64,000 bases of DNA. Source: Chrysomallon squamiferum. Taxonomy: Eukaryota > Animalia > Mollusca. The notes under the pieces were generated by a model, which saw only the letters and a program-made list of their open reading frames with translations, was not told where the DNA came from and made no database searches. Shown one piece after another: positions 1 to 23,315 of this stretch (position 1 is the first letter of the stretch; each line of letters opens with the position of its first letter). The translations under genes and the position numbers were made by a program. The stretch lies in NCBI GenBank assembly GCA_012295275.1, contig CM022679.1, positions 10,540,001 through 10,604,000 of the forward strand, read 5' to 3'.

Positions 1-113
1 AGAAAAAAACAACAAAAAAAACAGCTTTTTAATTCTGAGTATAAACATGTAAGTTATTATTGATTTTTTAAGAAAATGTTTAATATAAAACATTATCTAT
101 GTTTAAATTACAG

Positions 114-134
114 GTTATGGACCACCACCACCTG
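114..134 (+). CDS. LITAF-family gene, microexon A (21 nt, phase 1-1), (G)YGPPPP(G)
   Basis: ttacag|GTTATGGACCACCACCACCTG|gtaata. Canonical AG/GT, length divisible by 3, Pro/Gly/Tyr-rich, in frame with downstream exons. The start codon and any earlier exons lie upstream of the window. Confidence 0.85.
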
Positions 135-958
135 GTAATACTTCACATTATTATCTATACAGTATATTAACTCACTTAATAGCTGTTTTCATTCCTTGGC
201 CTTAGCCACACATTTGATAATAATTTCATGAGTTTGTGGTTAACTGCAATGTGTGTGTGTGTGTGTGTGTGTGTGTGTCTGTGTGTGTTTATATTTTCAA
301 ATCTTTCTTCTTTTTTTAAAGAAATAAATGTTTTATATTCTTTGTAAATGTCTTTTTATCATCATCATCATTTAAATTATAAAAATAATTAAACTAATGA
401 TTTATCACATATTGCATGTTACTTGTAGATTTCTTCATTTGTAATAGCTTTTTATAAAATTATAAATTGTGTCTTTCTGGTCTGTATGTCTTTGTTACAT
501 TTTATCTCTGCCAGTAAAATACTTTTAGTATTACATTAATAAATGTTGAACATAATGTTTTACATATAATTAATCTGGAATGAAGAGAGATGTTTTATTA
601 AATAATGTTAACATAACTAAATGTAATAGAAAAAAAAATAATAAAAAAAAAAAAAATATATATATATATATATGAATCCATGTACAGTTACACTAATGAG
701 TTAATAATAATTCTTTGTCTTCTCTTTTAAAGTTTAATTTTTAAAATTGAATACTTGTTCAATTTAAAAAAAAATTTTTTATATAAATGTACAAATAAAT
801 TAAAAAAATTATGTTTTACTTTTTTGTTTGAAAAAATGGATAATTTCAATAAAACTCGTACTGTTTTTTTTAAATTAGACTCGGAAAATAATTCAAAAAC
901 GTAAAGTAAAATTGTCAAAAACGTAAAATATAATTTACATGATTTTTACTCTTTTAAG

Positions 959-979
959 GTTATGCACCACCACCAGCTG
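959..979 (+). CDS. LITAF-family gene, microexon B (21 nt, phase 1-1), (G)YAPPPA(G)
   Basis: cttttaag|GTTATGCACCACCACCAGCTG|gtaagt. Consensus donor; 19/21 identical to microexon A. Confidence 0.9.
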
Positions 980-1876
980 GTAAGTTTACATTCCCACAAA
1001 CCCACTTGTACAGAAATTAGTTTTTTTTTTATCTTACAATATCACGTTTTCCTTTACGAAATTAGCACCAGTTGTTTCCATCTTATTTCTGTAATTTCTG
1101 TACTTCTTATTCATTGTGCTGCTGTTTAACCCTTCAAATATCTGACTTATCACGTTTATGTGCTTTTCTGTCTGTGGCAACAGCAGGTTTTCTCTTCTTG
1201 TCCATACAGTCCATATTTGTGTGTTCAATATGATTATAAATATTAAGCCATATTGTTGTAGATTAAAACTATTGTTAAACAGAACATCTGAAATTTATTT
1301 GTTAACACCCAGGCATGTCATTTTCCTTGACAAATAATCTTTTTTGTTTCTTTCTGTTATGGTAAAAATTACTGATATTTAACAATAATGGCCAAATTAA
1401 AAATGTCTGAATCTTTAATCTGGTGCACAAATTACTATCAAGGCATGCCTATTAATTGGTGGGGAAAAGGTTAATTAGACTGTTAGTTTCTAAAATGATT
1501 ATTTTTATTGATCCAAACAACGTCTGGCCATGGAAGGCTTCATATTTGATGTTTAAATAAAAGGCCAAATGATTAGTGCCTGTTCAAAAGAATTCAGTTT
1601 CTGTAGACTGGTGACAAAAGTAAACTTCTTCTAGTTTCAAAACTTTGAGTGGTATTCCCTTGACTTTGGCTTCATCAGTTTATATATATGTATATATGTT
1701 GACATTAGATAGTTGTTTGCTGTGTTTAAATTGTATTTCAGCTTGTATTTACATTCTATTTTAGTTTGTGATGTAAAGACTAATATCGTTTTCATAATTT
1801 GTTTTAAAATTTTGTTTATAACTAAATTATTAAAATGTCATCTTTTTTCTAGCATTATAATAAAGTATTTTGTATC

Positions 1877-1977
1877 TAATTGCAAAAATTTTAGGAAGTA
1901 GCTTTCCAGTAAAATTATTTTACATTTAATTGCAAGCATTTTATGAAGTATCTTTCCAGTAAAATTATTTTACATTT
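1877..1977. repeat. 50-bp tandem duplication (2 copies), intronic
   Basis: taattgcaa..att tta.gaagta.ctttccagtaaaattattttacatt at 1877 and 1927. Confidence 0.9.
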
Positions 1978-2205
1978 TATAAATAATTTTGTTAAAATAT
2001 TTGTTGTTGTTTAAACAAGCCATGTGAATTAGTTAATCACATTATTCTCCTGAGTTTCTGTAATATGAAGACCATTTTGTTCATCAATAATAATTATTAT
2101 TATAGTACTGAAAATGAATGCACAAATTAGATATTCTTGTACTGATGAGTACAGTGAATACATTATAAAAAAATTTTCTAATTTTTTTTCTTTAAAATAT
2201 AACAG

Positions 2206-2232
2206 GACAACCAGCTTATGGTATTCCCCAAG
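2206..2232 (+). CDS. LITAF-family gene, microexon C (27 nt, phase 1-1), (G)QPAYGIPQ(G)
   Basis: T-tract...taacag|GACAACCAGCTTATGGTATTCCCCAAG|gtttgt. An alternative in-phase GT lies at 2221. Confidence 0.82.
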
Positions 2233-2671
2233 GTTTGTAAAAAGCTGTTGTTGTGTGCACTTAACTGTTGTGGTTGTGTAGAGGATCTAACATAAATATT
2301 GCAGTATCTTGTTCACTTTTCACTCATTCACTCTTCTTCAGCATTAGAGGTGTCACTTAAAAAAAACAAGTCTTTATAAGAAAAGTAAAATGTGAAGGGA
2401 ACTGGATGTTACTAAAGTTTATCAATCAGTGCTGCAAATACGTTTCTGTTCTGTATGTCATTCACTAAAAGTTTTTATCTTGTTTTTCTTCAGGAAAGAT
2501 TTCCAGAATTAAACTTATGATAGATATAGTATATTAGTATACTATAATGCCTTGGGAGTAGACATTATTCTAGTGTAGTCATGTTTTATTTTGTATAATG
2601 AGAAAGAAAAATAAAATATAAAATTTTTTAATTTACTTTTGTTTTCATCACACTGTGCATTTCATGGCTTT

Positions 2672-2712
<41 letters not shown>

Positions 2713-3414
2713 CTGATCAGTCTCTTTTTAATTGTAATATCTATAATGTAGATTAATGTGTGGAATAATTTATAATAAACCTTATTGGGTTTCAGCTCTT
2801 GATTACAAAAGATGAAACTATGGTCTTAGTTTACTTTTAATAAGTATCTAATGCTTAATTAACTTTCTTATTAACAGGCACAATTTATTTATTACCTTTT
2901 GTTTTAGAGTGTTTGTGTTTACACAAATTAGTCTTAACTAATACTAATACTGCACAATGCTTAAAATAATAGATGTATTCATAATTAAATTATACACATA
3001 TAAAACAAAGTGCTTTGTTTTCTGTCTGTAATATCATTATTAACATATTGTCTGGCAATTGCAATTGGATCTGTAAACTGATTGCATCACATTTTGCTAG
3101 TTAGATTAGTAAAGACACTAAATTACAGGTGTCAGAAAAGAGCTGATACCATTAGTTCACTTCATTTTGTAACTTGGTTGTGATATTTAAAAAATGACAG
3201 ACTTTGTACTGCAGTTTTGTTATGTTTCTTTAAAGAAAAAATGAATGTTTAGCAAAATAGTATGTTTAGTATCCTATGTTAAGATCTGAATTCAAAGCAC
3301 ACATCATGATGACTTGATTATTGATGTTTATTAAAATGTTATTGCAGATATAAATAATATTAATTAACAAAAATTTAATGTGTTTGATGTGAATTGATTA
3401 TTAAAAAAAAAAAA

Positions 3415-3456
<42 letters not shown>

Positions 3457-3779
3457 GTATATCTCCATATTGTTGACTCTCCATTTAATGGACCAACTCA
3501 GGTTGTTATAAGTAGCACAAATAATGTTGAATAATGCACTTGAATACACTAAATTTACTGTAAATATGATAAATATTCTTTTAAGGATATGCATAATTAA
3601 ATTTACTCATACTCTACATTCAATTCAGGTTTCACCAACTCTGTTTGATAGCAGGTTGAAGTTGTTTTCCTGTGATTGGAATAATTTATGCCAAGTCAGT
3701 GGAAAATCAAGGAATATGTATTTCCCACATTTTGTCTTGATTTTGTGAAATTTGGTAAACAGGGGTGCATTAAATGGAG

Positions 3780-3812
<33 letters not shown>

Positions 3813-3927
3813 CATCTTCAGTTTCTTTGGGTTCATTATATTTTTCTTGGTTGTACATTTTTTCTTTCATCCAGATATTGTTTTTCTTTTTTTTTTTCAT
3901 ATAAAATTAATAACTATGTTTTTTCAG

Positions 3928-3951
3928 GTCCATTTGGCTATGGCCAGCCAG
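3928..3951 (+). CDS. LITAF-family gene, microexon D (24 nt, phase 1-1), (G)PFGYGQP(G)
   Basis: gttttttcag|GTCCATTTGGCTATGGCCAGCCAG|gtgtgt. GC-rich island in an AT-rich intron. Confidence 0.85.
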
Positions 3952-3974
3952 GTGTGTAAAACAAAAAGGTTCCC

Positions 3975-4256
3975 TGAATGTTTATAGTGAAAACTAACTC
4001 CTGTCATCCACAGTTTTAGTCCATATTCAGTTTATTGTTTTTTAAAGTAAATTCTGTGGGCATGTGTGTTTTGTTTAAACCTTAAAAGTAGTTTGTTTCT
4101 GTAAATAATAATGATTAATAACGACAATAATATTAATGCTTAATAATGAATGTTTATAGTGAAAACTAACTCCAGTTTACCCACAATTTTAGTCCACATT
4201 CAGTTTTTTTTTTAAATTAAATTTATGGGCCTGTATGTTCAATCTAAACCTTAAAA

Positions 4257-4292
<36 letters not shown>

Positions 4293-4296
4293 CCTG

Positions 4297-4305
<9 letters not shown>
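3975..4305. repeat. Diverged tandem duplication, period 172 bp, just downstream of microexon D
   Basis: tgaatgtttatagtgaaaactaactcc...ttttagtcca.attcagttt...taaaccttaaaagta at 3975 and 4147. Confidence 0.9.
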
Positions 4306-4332
<27 letters not shown>

Positions 4333-5211
4333 ACATTTGCAATAATTTAAGCCAAGATGTTAAATTTCAGTTGTACATCAGTACTTAAAGTGGGAAAGCA
4401 TTGAATGTGGAGGAATCTTACATACATCATAAATGTAAATACATTTTTTAGAAAATACATATGGGAAGGTTATAATGGAAAATGACTCAAGTAAAAACTA
4501 ACATGCTCGTGTTTTCTAAGTCTTGTTGTTGCTTGTTAATGCATGAAACAATTGACATAGCACTGGTAAAAATGTTTTGCATGGTATTAACACAGGCAGT
4601 TTAGAACTAATGATGAAACATGCATTAGATTGCAACAAACCACTGACAGTGCATTTGAATTACGAAATGTATCTTTGTAGATGTAATCCTAATTGTAAAT
4701 GTGTGTGTCTGTGTGTTATAAGAAACATTTGTTATGTAGATTATATAAACGGTATCAGAAATGTCTGGAATCATAAATATCATCCATATAGTGCATAATG
4801 TGGTCACAGATCAAAAGGTGATGGATGGAACATAGATAATGAATTGAACATGCTCTCTCTCTCAACATTAATGCATTACATTTTTGTTTATGTTGAATTT
4901 TTCTGTTGAGCTATTTTTATTTCTAGTCAGTGCTATACAAGGGGTGAAATAAAGTAAGATTAATGTGAACCCCCCAAAACCCACATATATTCCCATGAAG
5001 TTGGCTTTCTCTCTCAACTGAATGGCTGATAACCATATGTCCAGTGCTGTATAATAGTAAATGTAAAAAGGTTCTGAGTGCTGTTAACATTTTGAATTTA
5101 TTTTATTTAAATGAGTGCATCATTCAGAATTTGAATTTTGTTTTTTATTTAAACAAGTACATCATTAAAATTTTAACTGACTTAATTCAAATAAAACAAT
5201 TCCCTCAAGAA

Positions 5212-5365
5212 TATTTTTTATCCCAGTAAAACCCAACAACATGCTGTCTGCATTCCTGTTCATGGGGAGGTACATGTAAAAATAAAATTTGTTGCTGCTG
5301 CTGTTTGAAAAATAAAAGCTAATTATATGGTGACAGTGGGTTTCTTCTCTCTGTTAAGTATGTTG
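5212..5365 (+). mobile_element. Decayed SINE-like fragment in a LITAF intron
   Basis: Shares ggtacat.taaaa and gacagtgg...tttc..ctc blocks with the element at 18631-18920. Confidence 0.45.
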
Positions 5366-6074
5366 TTCTTTATATCACATGAATTATACCAATTACCTTT
5401 AGAAATGTTGTCCAAGAGAAATGGTACCTCTAAACTCTTTTGCATTTATCATGTGATGCCAGACATTTTAAGACATGGTGTATTACTGTTTGTGACAACT
5501 GTATGAATTAATTTGTCAGTTCAGTGTCAAGTATTAATAAAGCAATATTGAAAACAGCTTGAATGTTTTAACACTGCATGCAGATATATACTGTTAACAG
5601 ATCAGTTTGCTGTAGTTTGAACCATACACTTACAATTAATCAATACGTACATTTTACAGTGATATGTTATTTTTATATTATTTTTATGCAGGTATATTTA
5701 CACTGTAAATTTTAAACTGTGCAGTTATACATTTTTGTAAAATAACTTTTAAAGTTATACTACTGTAAAAATTGTTCCTTAAAAAAAAAAGAAAAAAAAA
5801 GAAATGAATGATACTGTAACTTAAAAAAATGATTTTACCTTGAGGCAAAGATTTTTTTTTCTTTCTTTTTTTATAATCAATATAACTGTAAACTGTCAGT
5901 TGTATTTTCACACACAACACACACACATACACAGAGAAATAAAGAGATAATGTTAAATTATTAATGTACACTCTGAAATTACCGAACAAGGAATATTTAG
6001 TATACTATACTTGAAAATTCTTTTTTGTTTTGTTCTTGATTAATCAATTATTTTCATTATCATTACGTTCACAG

Positions 6075-6092
6075 GACCCTATCCACCACCAG
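6075..6092 (+). CDS. LITAF-family gene, microexon E (18 nt, phase 1-1), (G)PYPPP(G)
   Basis: gttcacag|GACCCTATCCACCACCAG|gtacat. Confidence 0.85.
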
Positions 6093-7088
6093 GTACATAT
6101 TATTTATATTTCAGCATGAAATAATAAAAAAAAAAAAAAAAAAAGAAAAAAAATGTATAACCTAGTAAACTATTAAAGAGTTTAATTTGCCTTACAATAA
6201 ACTCTTTATAAATAAATATAAAAATGCCTTAATTATTTCTGTTAAAGAATTATTCTTTAATATTTTACCAATTAAAATTCCTTTAGAGAAAAGAAAAATT
6301 AACTGTTTATATAATTTAATTTTGGTAATTCTTCATTGTAACCCTTCAGTTATTTTGCATTCAAGGCAGAACCCAGTAATTTGTTTAGCAAAGACCATGG
6401 CTAAGGTGTTGTGGTATTAAACAATCTCTTTGCTACTAATCAGTACGATTAGCTAAAGAAATGGTAGCTAATGATTATCTTACATAATCCTTAAACAAAA
6501 AATGTATGTAATAATTAATACCGTTCGTATCTGCTACAGTATCATTTCTTTCATTTACCGCATATGTTGTAATTTTGCATAACATGATTTGGATTTAAAC
6601 TGGGTTTTGCTGTGGATCAATTTAGATTATTGTATTTTTACTGAGTGTTAAAAAAATCAATCAGGCTCTTTAGAATCAGTAGTAGCCACAATAAACACTT
6701 GATGTTTGGAAGTGTAGATGAATTATTTAATACATAATGAATGCTGTTGTCATGGGGGAAAATAACCCCAAAACATTTGGACATAAAGAATAAAAATATA
6801 ATGAAATATAATATTGAAAATTTCCACAACAAGATTTTTTATTTTTATTTAAAAAAAAAAAAAAGAAGAAAAAAACCTGTCCAAAAACAAAACAAATCCC
6901 CCTCAAAGTTTTATACATTTTTATACATATTCATGTTTTGATAATAAACAAAAAATTAATATATTTATTTCACTTTCAGTTTTTGACTGTATATAAGTCG
7001 AAGAAAAGTTAAAGTTAACTTTATGTATTTATAACTGTATTGAATAACATCATCATAATTTTTTTTTCTTTTTTTTTTTTTTTTTCAG

Positions 7089-7106
7089 GTCAATATCCTC
7101 CAGCAG
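7089..7106 (+). CDS. LITAF-family gene, microexon F (18 nt, phase 1-1), (G)QYPPA(G)
   Basis: Long T-tract, then ttcag|GTCAATATCCTCCAGCAG|gtaaca. Confidence 0.88.
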
Positions 7107-7660
7107 GTAACATTGTATACTTTAATTCAGTTGATTTAATACAGACATGTAATGTATTTCTTTTGAAATCAGTTTTCTTTAATTTTCCCATTCATCTGAA
7201 ACTGAACCTTTACCATGTGTCCTACAGGTTTAATTCTTTAGAATATTTGAAAGATTTATATTTATTTTTGATTTATTATTGTTTCTTTTATAGTACAAAA
7301 CTAAAATAGATTTATACATAACAAGTGCACAGTATTTTGTATCAAATGACATTATATTATTTAAACAATGAGCAACTGATATGTAAACACACACACACAC
7401 ACATACAAACTGGTAAATATATGCATACAAAAATATGCTGCAAAGACAAGTAAACAAACACACCCAACATAAATTGGGATTCATACATGCCATGAACCCT
7501 TTAAAGATGAATTTAACACAAACATGCAGACAAATGCACATATATAAATATAACATACGCAGGCATACATATGTACATAGATATATAAGGTTTGAACAAA
7601 AGTTGTTAGTGTTTTTTAAGTAAAATTCAAAGATACAGTTGAGATATTTTGTATATTTTG

Positions 7661-7696
<36 letters not shown>

Positions 7697-7944
7697 TACA
7701 GATACAGATATAGATATAGATATATACATATATATATTCTGTCATATGAAATGAAATCAAACATCAACTACCAAGTAATGCTAGGAACTTTTGTCCTATT
7801 ACAAGTAAAAGAAAGATTTATAACAGCCATAAACATAACACAAATACATAACATAAACATAACACAAATAAACAGAAACAGTGTGAATAATTATACCAGT
7901 GTCTTGAACAGTTAAAGACAGATTGTTTTGATGCTGTATTTCAG

Positions 7945-8152
7945 GACAACCTGTCCAGCCAGGATACTATCCACAAAGTCAGCAAGGCACCACCGTGGTT
8001 GTTGCTCAACCAGCAGTGACAGTGATACAGCAGTTCCGGGAGTCGCCAGTACACACCCGCTGCCCCTACTGTCAGGCCGAAGTGATGACCGGTACACACT
8101 ATGAGACTGGAACCTTCACTTGGGTCATCTGCCTCATTCTGGCTCTTGTTGG
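7945..8152 (+). CDS. LITAF: LITAF/CDIP1-family exon (208 nt, phase 1-2): end of the Pro-rich region, first CxxC and hydrophobic segment
   Basis: atttcag|GACAACC...GTTGG|gtttgt. Encodes QPVQPGYYPQ...FRESPVHTRCPYCQAEVMTGTHYETGTFTWVICLILALV, matching the LITAF-domain pattern (P-x4-C-P-x-C, T-x4-E-x-G-x2-T-W). The symbol denotes family membership; orthology was not tested. Confidence 0.95.
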
Positions 8153-8630
8153 GTTTGTACTTACACATATTCAAATTATGTCTGCGTTAAACAGACTCTT
8201 TTCTCTCGGAATATTCCAAAATTAAAGTTGACTGTCGGCCATCAGTACTTATAAAATATAATTGTGTAAAGTTGCTGGTGAATGTGAAAGCAGAGATTTA
8301 AGTGGGGTATGAGGTGGAGATTCATAATTATTTGATTTTAAAATTATTATTGTTTTTGGATTTATTGTGATACAAACGCTAAAAACTAAACAGACTGATA
8401 ACCTGTTTCATTTAAACAGTTTAAATGGACACGGATTTTTCAAACTACTTATGGTATTTGTTTTTCTTTTGTTCTAGCTTTTTTTGTTTTATTAACTAGA
8501 CAGTATTTTCTTGCCAATAATCAGAAAGAAAAATAAAAATCCTTTTTACTCACTGTTTTACTCATATATTTTTTCTTTTCTTTTTTTTCTTTTCATGTTT
8601 GCTTTCTGTATTCACTTCTCTAATTAAACT

Positions 8631-8666
<36 letters not shown>

Positions 8667-8707
8667 GGAGGATATTTTCTTTCATTATTGTGTTTCTTTG
8701 CAATCAG

Positions 8708-8816
8708 ATGCTGGGTTGGCTGCTGCCTGATCCCATTCTGCGTTGACGGCTGCAAAGATGTAATCCACACTTGTCCTAACTGCAGACAGCAGATTGCACG
8801 CTGGAGTCGCATGTAA
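8708..8816 (+). CDS. LITAF: LITAF/CDIP1-family terminal coding exon: GCCLIPFC and HxCPNC, stop TAA
   Basis: caatcag|A TGC TGG GTT GGC TGC TGC CTG ATC CCA TTC TGC...CAC ACT TGT CCT AAC TGC...ATG TAA. GG|A completes a Gly across the intron. CCLIPFC...KDVxHxCPNC is the LITAF-domain hallmark. Confidence 0.95.
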
Positions 8817-8999: not shown

Positions 9000-9370
9000 T
9001 GACAAGGTTAACATTTTAAAATTTTAAAATTTTAAGCTTGATTTTTAAGTTTTAAAATAGTTAGAAACTAGTGATGCCAACGTGAAGATTAATATTTTAA
9101 TTTAATGGGTTTTAAAAATGTAGAATTTCGCATTTTAAAATGAAAAAAAAAAGAAGAAAAGTCCCAGAATAATTCATTTTATTAATTTTAATGAAAAGAC
9201 CAGTATTTTAAAGTTTGAATTTTAAAAAGTTGAATTTTAAATATTAAAATAAACAGAAAAAAAAACAGATGTAAGCTCAGTTTACATATATTAATGAAAG
9301 GACAAGCATTTTAAAGTTGGAATTTTAAACAGAAGTAGAATTTTATATTTTAAGTAATGAAAAAATTATT
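9000..9370. repeat. Degenerate ~100-bp tandem repeat in the proximal 3' UTR
   Basis: taatgaaaagaccagtattttaaagtttgaattttaaa (9189) vs taatgaaaggacaagcattttaaagttggaattttaaa (9292), with weaker copies upstream. Confidence 0.6.
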
Positions 9371-12300
9371 ATATTTTAAAAAATGAATAGTAATTAACAT
9401 ACGTAAGATATTTGTTCTATTTAAGATAAAATTATAAAAAGAAAAAGACATTTGTTACCAATATTAATAAGTTAGCATTAAAAATAAGTTTTTTCTTCTG
9501 ATTATATTCATTTGGCACTTTTTTATTTCATTTCAAAATGAATAAGAAATTTAATAATAGGTGTTTAATAACACTCTCTACAATTTTTAAGATTTTAAAA
9601 CGAAATTTGTGATGATTTTGTTGGTTATAAATAACAGCAATGTTTTATCTGACATTATTATTTTATTTTTTATTATTATTGGCATTGTGTACTGGTATTT
9701 CAAAAGTAAGGAGAATGCTTAATATTACTAAAGATATACTCATGGAAATAATTAAATTTATTGCTGATTACATTTCAAATCACTGTTATTTTTGTTTGAT
9801 AAATGAATTACATTTTAATATCTGTACATGTTATTTTTGATATTTAGCCATTAAATGTTTATGGAAATTTTTTCAAAATTTTAGAAATCTTTATTTTGTT
9901 TTTCTTTTGTATCTTTCATTTGCTGTTTGTACATGCATGCACTTATAAGTATTTTAATTATTTTAGTTTGTTTTATTATCTTTATTTGATTTTGTTTTTC
10001 ATGGTTTTCATTGGCAGTATCTTTCTATTGCATTTCTATTGAAATAATATTGGAGAAAAAACTCAAACATTTATCTTGCCAGCATTGGTGAAAATGACTG
10101 TAAAAAGAAAATTATTTGATAAAAAAATTAGATTGTGTTGATTTTAATCTACCAAGATTTTGTAATCAAAATATCAAACGTCTTGTCATTGCTTTTCATC
10201 TACTCTTGTGAGAAACAATGACGATGTTCATACAGATTTTGTTTTTAAAGTTCTTATGACTTTGTCTTAATTCTGTCTTTTTATAATGATCGTAAGGACA
10301 AATTCCTAATTATTATTATTATATTTTTTTTCAAAATCAAAAGCTATATATTTAACATTTAATATACAAAACATCTCAATTTTCTTTTCTGAATTGAAAA
10401 CTCCACATTATATACTCATTTTTGTTTCTGTGTCAACAATTTATGTAAAATCTGTTCTTGTTGTAATAGTGAAATAAATGTCAAAAGTTTTGAACCTTAA
10501 ATAGCAGAGCCAGTGGAACGATCAAAGTAGTTTCATTGATTGATTTAAATCCATCAAAACAAGATGGTGGCATTTGTTTTTAAAAGAAGATTTTGTAACT
10601 TAAGTGATGATGAAAATTATTGTTTCCACGAAATATTGTAGATTAATTAACCTTATGATGTAATAATGTCTGAGAATACTGAATGTAATTTACAAATAAA
10701 ATTAAAACTTAGTTTTAATACTAAAGTATCAGTTCTGATGTTCATATGTATTGATGAAAAAATAAATTGGGAATAAAATGATTTTTATATTTATCTGTTA
10801 ATATTGATATTTTTACTTAGAAGATAATTTTTATGCTAAGTTTTATTTAAGTATGGTTATTGTGTATTTAGCTGGGTATTAATTCAGTTTTATGAAAATA
10901 GAACAAAAAGATAATGTGTTATAAACTAGTTTCAAATTTTCATAATGCCAAAATGGATTTGTAAAATCAGGTGTTAATATTAGCAATTTGAATCATTATT
11001 ATTACTTCAAAAAATGCTGAAATTTTTTTTATAAAATGAAATTAATAACAATAATAATTTAAAAATTGGTGTTGGCCATAGCCTTGTATACACATTTTAG
11101 GTAAGTGGTTTTGAAGATTGTTACCATTGTTTATTTATGGTTGTGATATGTTTGTTATCTCGTTCAGGTTGATCAGAAAGTTTTTGTTTTCTGCTTTTGT
11201 TTATAACCTTGCAGTGAAAGTATATTCTCTTCTCAAGGTAACAACATAGATTTGCTTTTGGTTTTTTATCTTTAATCATTAATGATTGTGGGGTTTTTAA
11301 TTTTTAATTTTTTTTTCCTTTAATCATAGATGATAGTTTTCCAGCAAGTATTTTTTAAGTTTTAGCATAGATCTTTTTTTTTATAGTCAAAATTATTTTC
11401 AGGCAGTTTTGTGAAAAACTCTCATCTGTGATTAATACAATTTTAATTTTTATAAATGATCAGTGTATTCACAAAGATGTGTTTTTGTAATGTTTTTGTT
11501 GTTTGTACTTTTCAATTATTTCATTTTAGCTGGGCCCTTATGAAGCATATTTTAAAAAGTGAAATACAGAATATTATTTATAAGTTCAAAACGTATGTTG
11601 AGAAGTGTAAATTTATGAATTAAAATTGGTTTTAAATTTGTAAAGACGCCCAATCTTCAGCATAAAAGGATAGTTTTACTGTATGTGTTTAGCTTACTTC
11701 CTAAGGGCCTGTGTGTAAAGCAGTTTAAAATTCTTGATGCATATCTTAACATTCTGTGATCATTTTAACATTATTACAACATGGAGCATTGCGTTCTGCA
11801 GTTTTTAAAATAATTCCTTTATCAAAGTAAATTTGTCAGTAGAACACAAAAATTATGTAGATAGTTTTTTTTTTTTCTTTGCTTGTAGTAAAATGTTTTT
11901 AATATTATTTCACTGGTCCTATTTTTTCTTTGTCTTATTTTCTTTTTATTAAATGTTTTTTAAAAATGCTTTTGGTCAGATTAAAAAATTTAAAATCATT
12001 AATTATGTAGTCTGTACAAAGAAGAGAATTGTTTTATTTATTCTGCTAAAAATACAGCCACAGACTATTTTATAAATTAAACATTTGGATGTTATATTAA
12101 AAACAGTGCCTAAAACAGTGACATCTGATATACTGTTCGTGGACAATGATGATAAATTTGTTATGTCTTAATAGAGACCAGTTTGAAATTTATTGTAAGA
12201 GATATTTTTCAGAGTTTTTGTTTATCAAATGCAATATATAATACTCTATGCTTGTAAATGATTTGGTTTTGTTTTTGTGATTAACAAAAATTGTCATCAG

Positions 12301-22779: not shown

Positions 22780-23315
22780 CGTTAAATAACAGTATTTTAT
22801 AGTTTGTATATAATGGTTGATTGTACTTTGTAACTGTACTTTATATTTTAATTATAATTATGCATTATGGTTTGTATCTAATGTTTTATGTCGTATAAAT
22901 ATACTTTGTATGTAACTGTACTTTATATTTTATATATAACTATGCATTATAGTTTGTATCTAATGTTTTATGTCGTATAAATGTACTTTGTATATAACTG
23001 TACATTATATTTTATATTTAACTATAGATTGTAGTTTGTATCTAATGTTGTATATTATAGTATAAATATAGTTTGTAACTACATCATATCATTTATATCA
23101 AACGTTGAGTTATAGTTTGCATGTAACTGTAGATTTTATTTTATATATGATTATACATTACAGTTTGTAGCTAATGTTATATATATGTTGCATAAAAATA
23201 TTTAGTATGTAACTGTACATTATATATTTTGAATATAACGATACCTTATAGTTTGTATGTAACTGTACATTATGTATTCTCTGTAACGAAACATTTTATA
23301 TTTTACGTGAAAATA

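Follow-up and report, generated by a model that had tools for sequence, protein, structure and literature searches.

A LITAF-family gene of Chrysomallon squamiferum with a proline-rich tail partly encoded by six in-frame microexons

The gene and its exons

We have studied a stretch of 64,000 nucleotides (nt) from the mollusc Chrysomallon squamiferum (assembly GCA_012295275.1, contig CM022679.1, positions 10,540,001 to 10,604,000 of the forward strand), to which we refer as the window. Close to its start there is a gene of the LITAF/CDIP1 family, in which six in-frame microexons (E1 to E6) code for part of a proline-rich tail; they are followed by two larger exons, E7 and E8, which complete the tail and code for the LITAF domain. 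The best protein match is found in Gigantopelta aegis (88% over E7; 81 of 88 residues are identical over the domain region), and the tail of the Gigantopelta protein can be divided into six modules, numbered here as the exons. Five sequencing runs match the window, all of them as assembled contigs: X1 to X4 are RNA from one study and X5 is of unrecorded kind. The features of the gene are the following, with positions counted from the first letter of the window.

114..134, + strand: microexon E1, 21 nt, phase 1, GYGPPPP; its joints are present in runs X2, X3 and X4 (3/3 RNA contigs reaching E1)
959..979, + strand: microexon E2, 21 nt, GYAPPPA; present in the X3 and X4 contigs, missing from the X2 contig
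2206..2232, + strand: microexon E3, 27 nt, GQPAYGIPQ; skipped in 3/3 spanning contigs, its inclusion suggested by a Gigantopelta module
3928..3951, + strand: microexon E4, 24 nt, GPFGYGQP; skipped in 3/3 spanning contigs, its inclusion suggested by a Gigantopelta module
6075..6092, + strand: microexon E5, 18 nt, GPYPPP; skipped in 3/3 spanning contigs, its inclusion suggested by a Gigantopelta module
7089..7106, + strand: microexon E6, 18 nt, GQYPPA; present in 4/4 RNA contigs
7945..8152, + strand: exon E7, 208 nt; codes for the last part of the tail and for the first half of the LITAF domain, with CPYC and the hydrophobic anchor
8708..8816, + strand: coding part of exon E8, 109 nt; codes for the remaining half of the LITAF domain, with CPNC, and ends with the stop codon
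8817..9304, + strand: 3' untranslated region up to the limit of the spliced contigs (which end at 9231-9304), with AATAAA at 9248; it may be longer

The microexons are separated by introns of 824, 1226, 1695, 2123 and 996 nt; the intron between E6 and E7 has 838 nt and the one between E7 and E8 has 555 nt. All six are bounded by AG and GT, have a length divisible by three, lie in phase 1 and carry a G at both ends, which bears out the preliminary description of this DNA, made from its letters. RNA confirms E1, E2 and E6, whereas E3, E4 and E5 are regarded as exons because of their intact splice sites and the matching modules in the Gigantopelta isoform records. When joined, the six give a single stop-free frame which runs into the LITAF domain, and they make up 129 of the 446 coding nt within the window. 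Any subset had been expected to splice in frame with no stop at the junctions; all 64 subsets are in fact stop-free, and they yield 64 distinct peptides.

The family assignment proposed earlier is also confirmed. Pfam PF10601 matches E7 with 38.6 bits and E8 with 46 bits (cut-off 23.8), the CPYC and CPNC pairs flank a hydrophobic run and their four cysteines are invariant across 55 aligned sequences. The arm translated from the window is rich in proline and lies N-terminal to the domain. In a tree of 21 rows the protein pairs with Gigantopelta, with weak support (92/81); no branch is starred, two fish rows pair together on long branches, and the tree does not assign the mollusc gene to either LITAF or CDIP1. 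In the AlphaFold model of the long Gigantopelta form, block pLDDT is 42-56 and residues 11-80 are free of secondary structure; over the domain pLDDT is 79-96.

We scanned both strands of the whole window for proline-rich phase-1 units with AG/GT borders and recovered only these six, none beyond those of the preliminary description. In 200 third-order Markov simulations of bases 1-7944 the mean was 0.005 units and the maximum 1; the filter was designed after the exons were known, which flatters this contrast. A looser scan gave no extra unit within the gene; it added only an internal donor in E3 and, downstream of the gene, five candidates of poor quality. The E3 donor is in frame and would make a predicted form of 15 nt (2206-2220, GQPAY).

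E1 and E2 are identical in 19 of their 21 letters and are likely to have arisen by exon duplication. A recent duplication of exon plus intron is not supported, as the intron flanks of the six units are not clearly homologous to one another, the resemblance being limited to the exon pair E1/E2. Each junction in the window splits a glycine codon, as had been pointed out. The usual consensus at exon edges tends to put a G on both sides of a junction; the split glycine codons are thus largely a result of phase-1 introns combined with G-edged exons, and two Gigantopelta modules begin with alanine instead. Among the six microexons, E6 has the purest polypyrimidine tract. The AG-free zones upstream of the microexons (41-113, 908-958, 2156-2205, 3876-3927, 6002-6074 and 7016-7088) measure 40-73 nt, compared with 22 and 36 nt for E7 and E8, a difference which may be due to chance.

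Splicing in RNA and in other molluscs

The spliced contigs of X3 and X4 run from upstream sequence through E1, E2, E6, E7 and E8, and their lengths fit these paths exactly. The spliced contig of X2 joins E1, E6, E7 and E8, without E2, while the contig of X1 begins at E6 and continues into E7. E1, E2, E6, E7 and E8 are used in RNA, and two spliced patterns are present, in agreement with the exon skipping that had been foreseen. E6 is found in all four RNA contigs and E1 in the three which reach it; the three contigs which span E3, E4 and E5 all skip these exons, and one of the three lacks E2 as well. We hold exon skipping itself to be real, with a confidence that is high if not complete. X5 behaves as DNA: one of its contigs crosses the intron into E7 and it has none of these splice joints.

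An unspliced contig of X2 covers E3 (2074-2507) alongside the spliced contig which lacks it, so a homozygous deletion does not account for the loss of E3 in this run. It is unlikely that the X2 form arose by assembly collapse of E1 and E2: by inspection their longest shared run is at most 10 letters, far below the assembly word. We have not counted the start of the X1 contig, one G before E6, as a mark of merged upstream exons, since a merge with unspliced intron looks alike. The contigs of X1 and X5 were aligned again over 100-8160 and gave no junction of E3, E4 or E5, with most loose-end rows hidden. Further coding sequence upstream of the window had also been suspected, and the X3 and X4 contigs have loose ends before base 112. 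Their 30 preceding letters translate by hand to QKGGVPPPPQ, which matches the Gigantopelta head, so there is at least one coding exon upstream of the window.

The six isoform records of Gigantopelta decompose exactly, each of them, into a constant head, a subset of modules and a constant remainder, with module borders placed by eye on the longest record. The module lengths are 7, 7, 9, 8, 5 and 6 residues, compared with 7, 7, 9, 8, 6 and 6 in the window. Only modules 3 to 5 vary, and six of their eight possible subsets are on record. The shortest isoform, without these three modules, corresponds to the form found in X3 and X4. Together with the identity of the domain region and the six matching modules, this shared short form makes Gigantopelta the closest parallel to our gene. 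Some differences are apparent: module 5 has 5 residues and not 6, two modules start with alanine, the PPxY motif formed at a junction lies at another junction than E1/E2, and every record keeps module 2, whereas X2 has lost E2. Isoform records of this kind are pipeline predictions built on RNA alignments. The expectation that gene predictors would miss such microexons does not hold where RNA is used, as these RNA-guided records contain all six modules.

From these modules we infer that E3, E4 and E5 are cassette exons, which minor transcripts or other tissues would include. The 64 combinations proposed earlier are possible on paper, but the constant presence of E6, that of E1 wherever contigs reach it and the restriction of variation to modules 3-5 in Gigantopelta do not support their free use; skipping looks restricted rather than 64-way.

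We also compared records of the same species in 25 sets of molluscs, one of them by eye, from snails, bivalves and three sets of Octopus (the label of one Octopus species, incomplete in its record, is the one we presume). All 25 sets have internal block deletions in the tail, 24 of them clean and that of Patella ambiguous; one set from Dreissena mixes paralogues. The deleted blocks are mostly units of 5-12 residues, and we infer that they also correspond to microexons. Skipping in the LITAF tail is probably old in molluscs, and the array is probably shared across them.

Among the records of scallop, mussel, oyster and freshwater mussel there are pairs in which the C-terminal half of the LITAF domain takes one of two forms, with DLGCC in one and xPCC or similar in the other (P0045/P0050, P0012/P0058, P0086/P0091, P0187/P0196 and P0224/P0198, to be compared with window 8708-8816). 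This points to a terminal exon that was duplicated and is used in alternative copies. We looked in the window for a further terminal exon and for a paralogue; it contains a single copy (8708-8816). Two unnamed assembly-derived proteins, P0142 and P0157, match E7 at 93-96%, and one of them has a fourfold tandem repeat of exon end plus intron start; they are likely to represent the gene of a close relative called without splicing. P0033 from Owenia fusiformis, with 313 residues, has two LITAF domains, each behind a proline-rich repeat arm, and may be a fusion of neighbours.

Downstream of the gene, RNA contigs of 0.6-2.5 kb with depth 20-34 start at window 10054-10500 and beyond in all four RNA runs; they may belong to a long 3' untranslated region or to a neighbouring transcript. 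Elsewhere in the window, 14 of the 165 listed open reading frames were scanned with Pfam and none gave a match. The region 12000-64000 is rich in microsatellites and has one local duplication of 167 nt near 22829-23077.

A possible role for the variable arm

Among 97 homologue records, 89 have a PPxY motif within the first 15 residues. In 9 of 10 species the number of PPxY motifs is equal in the longest and the shortest record, while tail length and number of tyrosines fall: tail tyrosines go from 10 to 6 in Gigantopelta and from 10 to 5 in two scallops. The stretch in the window has 8 tyrosines with all six microexons, 5 in the form E1-E2-E6 and 4 in the form E1-E6. The junction of E1 and E2 spells PPGY, a PPxY motif which 16 of the 64 subsets contain and which the X2 form has lost. 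The pattern PPYP..YP is found in 62 of the 97 records; we take it to resemble a type of ALG-2 motif other than PxPG[FW]. The TSG101 motif P(S/T)AP occurs in only one of the 97 and in none of four window forms examined. PxPG[FW], by which CDIP1 binds ALG-2 according to the accessible part of PMC7865452, is found in none of the 97 and, by inspection, is absent from the window translation.

Human LITAF, as described in the available passages of PMC5142333, has an unstructured proline-rich arm whose PPXY binds the WW domains of NEDD4 and directs localisation, and a zinc-binding domain which anchors it in endosomal membranes. By analogy, the LITAF domain of our gene would anchor its product in the membrane of endosomes or lysosomes, and near the N-terminus, outside the window, a constant PPxY would bind WW domains of ubiquitin ligases of the NEDD4 type. 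The cassettes would be placed between this motif and the membrane anchor. Their skipping could then act as a dial on the reach of the arm and on the number of weak tyrosine and proline contact points; it would not be an on/off switch of the main motif, because the number of PPxY remains constant while tail length and tyrosines vary. The skipping of E2 would be an exception particular to this species, as it removes the PPGY of the junction. We incline, by a small degree, to the view that microexon skipping functionally tunes the length and tyrosine content of an arm predicted to be disordered.

A serious rival to a tuning role, which we consider possible if somewhat improbable, is tolerated noise: tiny exons within introns of kilobases would be skipped at random, the products being equivalent since they are in frame and disordered, and the array would have grown by duplication and persisted because its loss is harmless and slow. 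The sequences and numbers of modules do differ across lineages, E1 and E2 resemble a duplicate pair, the main PPxY lies outside the variable part and it is common for exons that are symmetric and alternatively spliced to encode disorder (PMC3632108). Noise does not explain so well that the same three modules are skipped in C. squamiferum and in Gigantopelta, with module 6 kept in both, that variable blocks recur in three classes of molluscs and that the joint skipping of three exons is the main assembled form and not a rare error. It is quite unlikely that E3, E4 and E5 are out of use in C. squamiferum, with a fixed tail E1-E2-E6 and an allele behind the contig without E2. This would agree with the lack of any contig including the three exons and of any X2 contig with unspliced E2; however, all three keep AG/GT borders, lengths divisible by three, an open frame and a content of G, P, Y and Q, and they match modules which the Gigantopelta records include. 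We find equally hard to credit a free shuffling of all six for immune recognition or for recognition of symbionts, an idea put forward for the micro-exon genes of schistosomes. It is true that every one of the 64 subsets is open and distinct and that scallop records reach isoform X16, but the scallop counts are inflated by the second terminal exon and only part of the modules vary; furthermore, the arm is cytosolic in human LITAF, as far as the accessible source goes, and presumably here too, hence unexposed to microbes.

Several observations weigh against the tuning of the arm by skipping. No RNA contig of C. squamiferum (X1-X4) includes E3, E4 or E5. All this RNA comes from a single study, as contigs without inclusion levels; contigs drop the rarer paths, and the missing joints of E3-E5 are not evidence of absence. 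The loss of E2 in X2 could be an allele rather than skipping, as no X2 contig covers unspliced E2 (depth 0 at 701-1050). The start of the gene falls outside the window, with the N-terminal PPxY of C. squamiferum itself unseen, and the accessible literature gave no binding or localisation test of mollusc isoforms. The species sets were chosen for having several records, leaving out species with a single record, the Nucella records and the Saccostrea sets, and they compare proteins only, with exon borders unseen. Module sequences diverge freely among lineages, as neutral low-complexity sequence would.

A wider proposal builds on this tuning role: an old regulated splicing dial common to snails, bivalves and octopus, in which the cassette array would set arm length and tyrosine valency according to tissue or challenge, the arm would link a membrane-anchored endolysosomal adaptor to ubiquitin ligases and bivalves would add a swappable half of the zinc domain. 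Taken as one joint claim, we regard it as doubtful.

In molluscs, LITAF is commonly measured as a marker of immunity. If its arm varies by splicing, studies of a single transcript pool proteins of possibly different behaviour. The gene would be a compact natural series for the effects of spacer length and tyrosine number on a disordered arm, as well as a microexon set, not of the neural type, for the recognition of exons of 18-27 nt in an invertebrate. Should the variation be noise, what is left is a commonplace example of symmetric exons within a disordered region. We found no description of a LITAF microexon tail in the literature searched, which did not extend to supplements or to subscription journals, where many papers on the cloning of mollusc LITAF are published; the array is already implicit in database isoforms, yet undescribed in that literature. 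In mussel, LITAF transcripts have a terminal exon border in common, which has been taken to suggest diversification by alternative splicing and gene duplication, with no mention of microexons in the passages accessible (PMC4101229).

Comparison with known systems

Vertebrate LITAF and CDIP1 encode the arm in ordinary exons. The mollusc gene resembles human LITAF/SIMPLE and CDIP1 by its proline-rich unstructured arm joined to a zinc-binding, membrane-anchored LITAF domain (PMC5142333, in part). It differs from them by the motifs P(S/T)AP and PxPG[FW], essentially absent from the mollusc records.

Neural microexons of the Srrm4 type are marked by TGC shortly before the 3' splice site. None of the six microexons has TGC in the stretch of about 4 to 20 bases upstream; both E7 and E8 have it. 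A more general parallel is found in Schad et al. 2013 (PMC3632108), where symmetric exons subject to alternative splicing show a tendency to code for disorder, and tandem duplication is a frequent origin of them. That work is a survey of human genes, whereas here we have units of 18-27 nt and a pattern which recurs across molluscs in one gene.

The likeness to schistosome micro-exon genes (MEGs), noted in the preliminary description, is only partial. As far as the available part of PMC4350168 describes them, MEGs have a run of tiny symmetric exons in long introns, their skipping yields similar proteins, they consist mostly of microexons, carry signal peptides and seem to be limited to flatworms. 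Our gene shares with them the run of small symmetric exons and a skipping which gives a pool of similar proteins (two forms here, six in Gigantopelta). The defining features are lacking: only 129 of the 446 coding nt in the window are microexonic, and they are attached to a conserved intracellular domain. The N-terminus of Gigantopelta is rich in proline and by inspection has no hydrophobic run, a reading made without a signal-peptide predictor and for a relative, as the start of our gene lies outside the window. The gene is not a micro-exon gene of schistosome type; a nearer analogue is SmVAL-6 with its MEG-like part, in which a run of microexons is also joined to a conserved domain.

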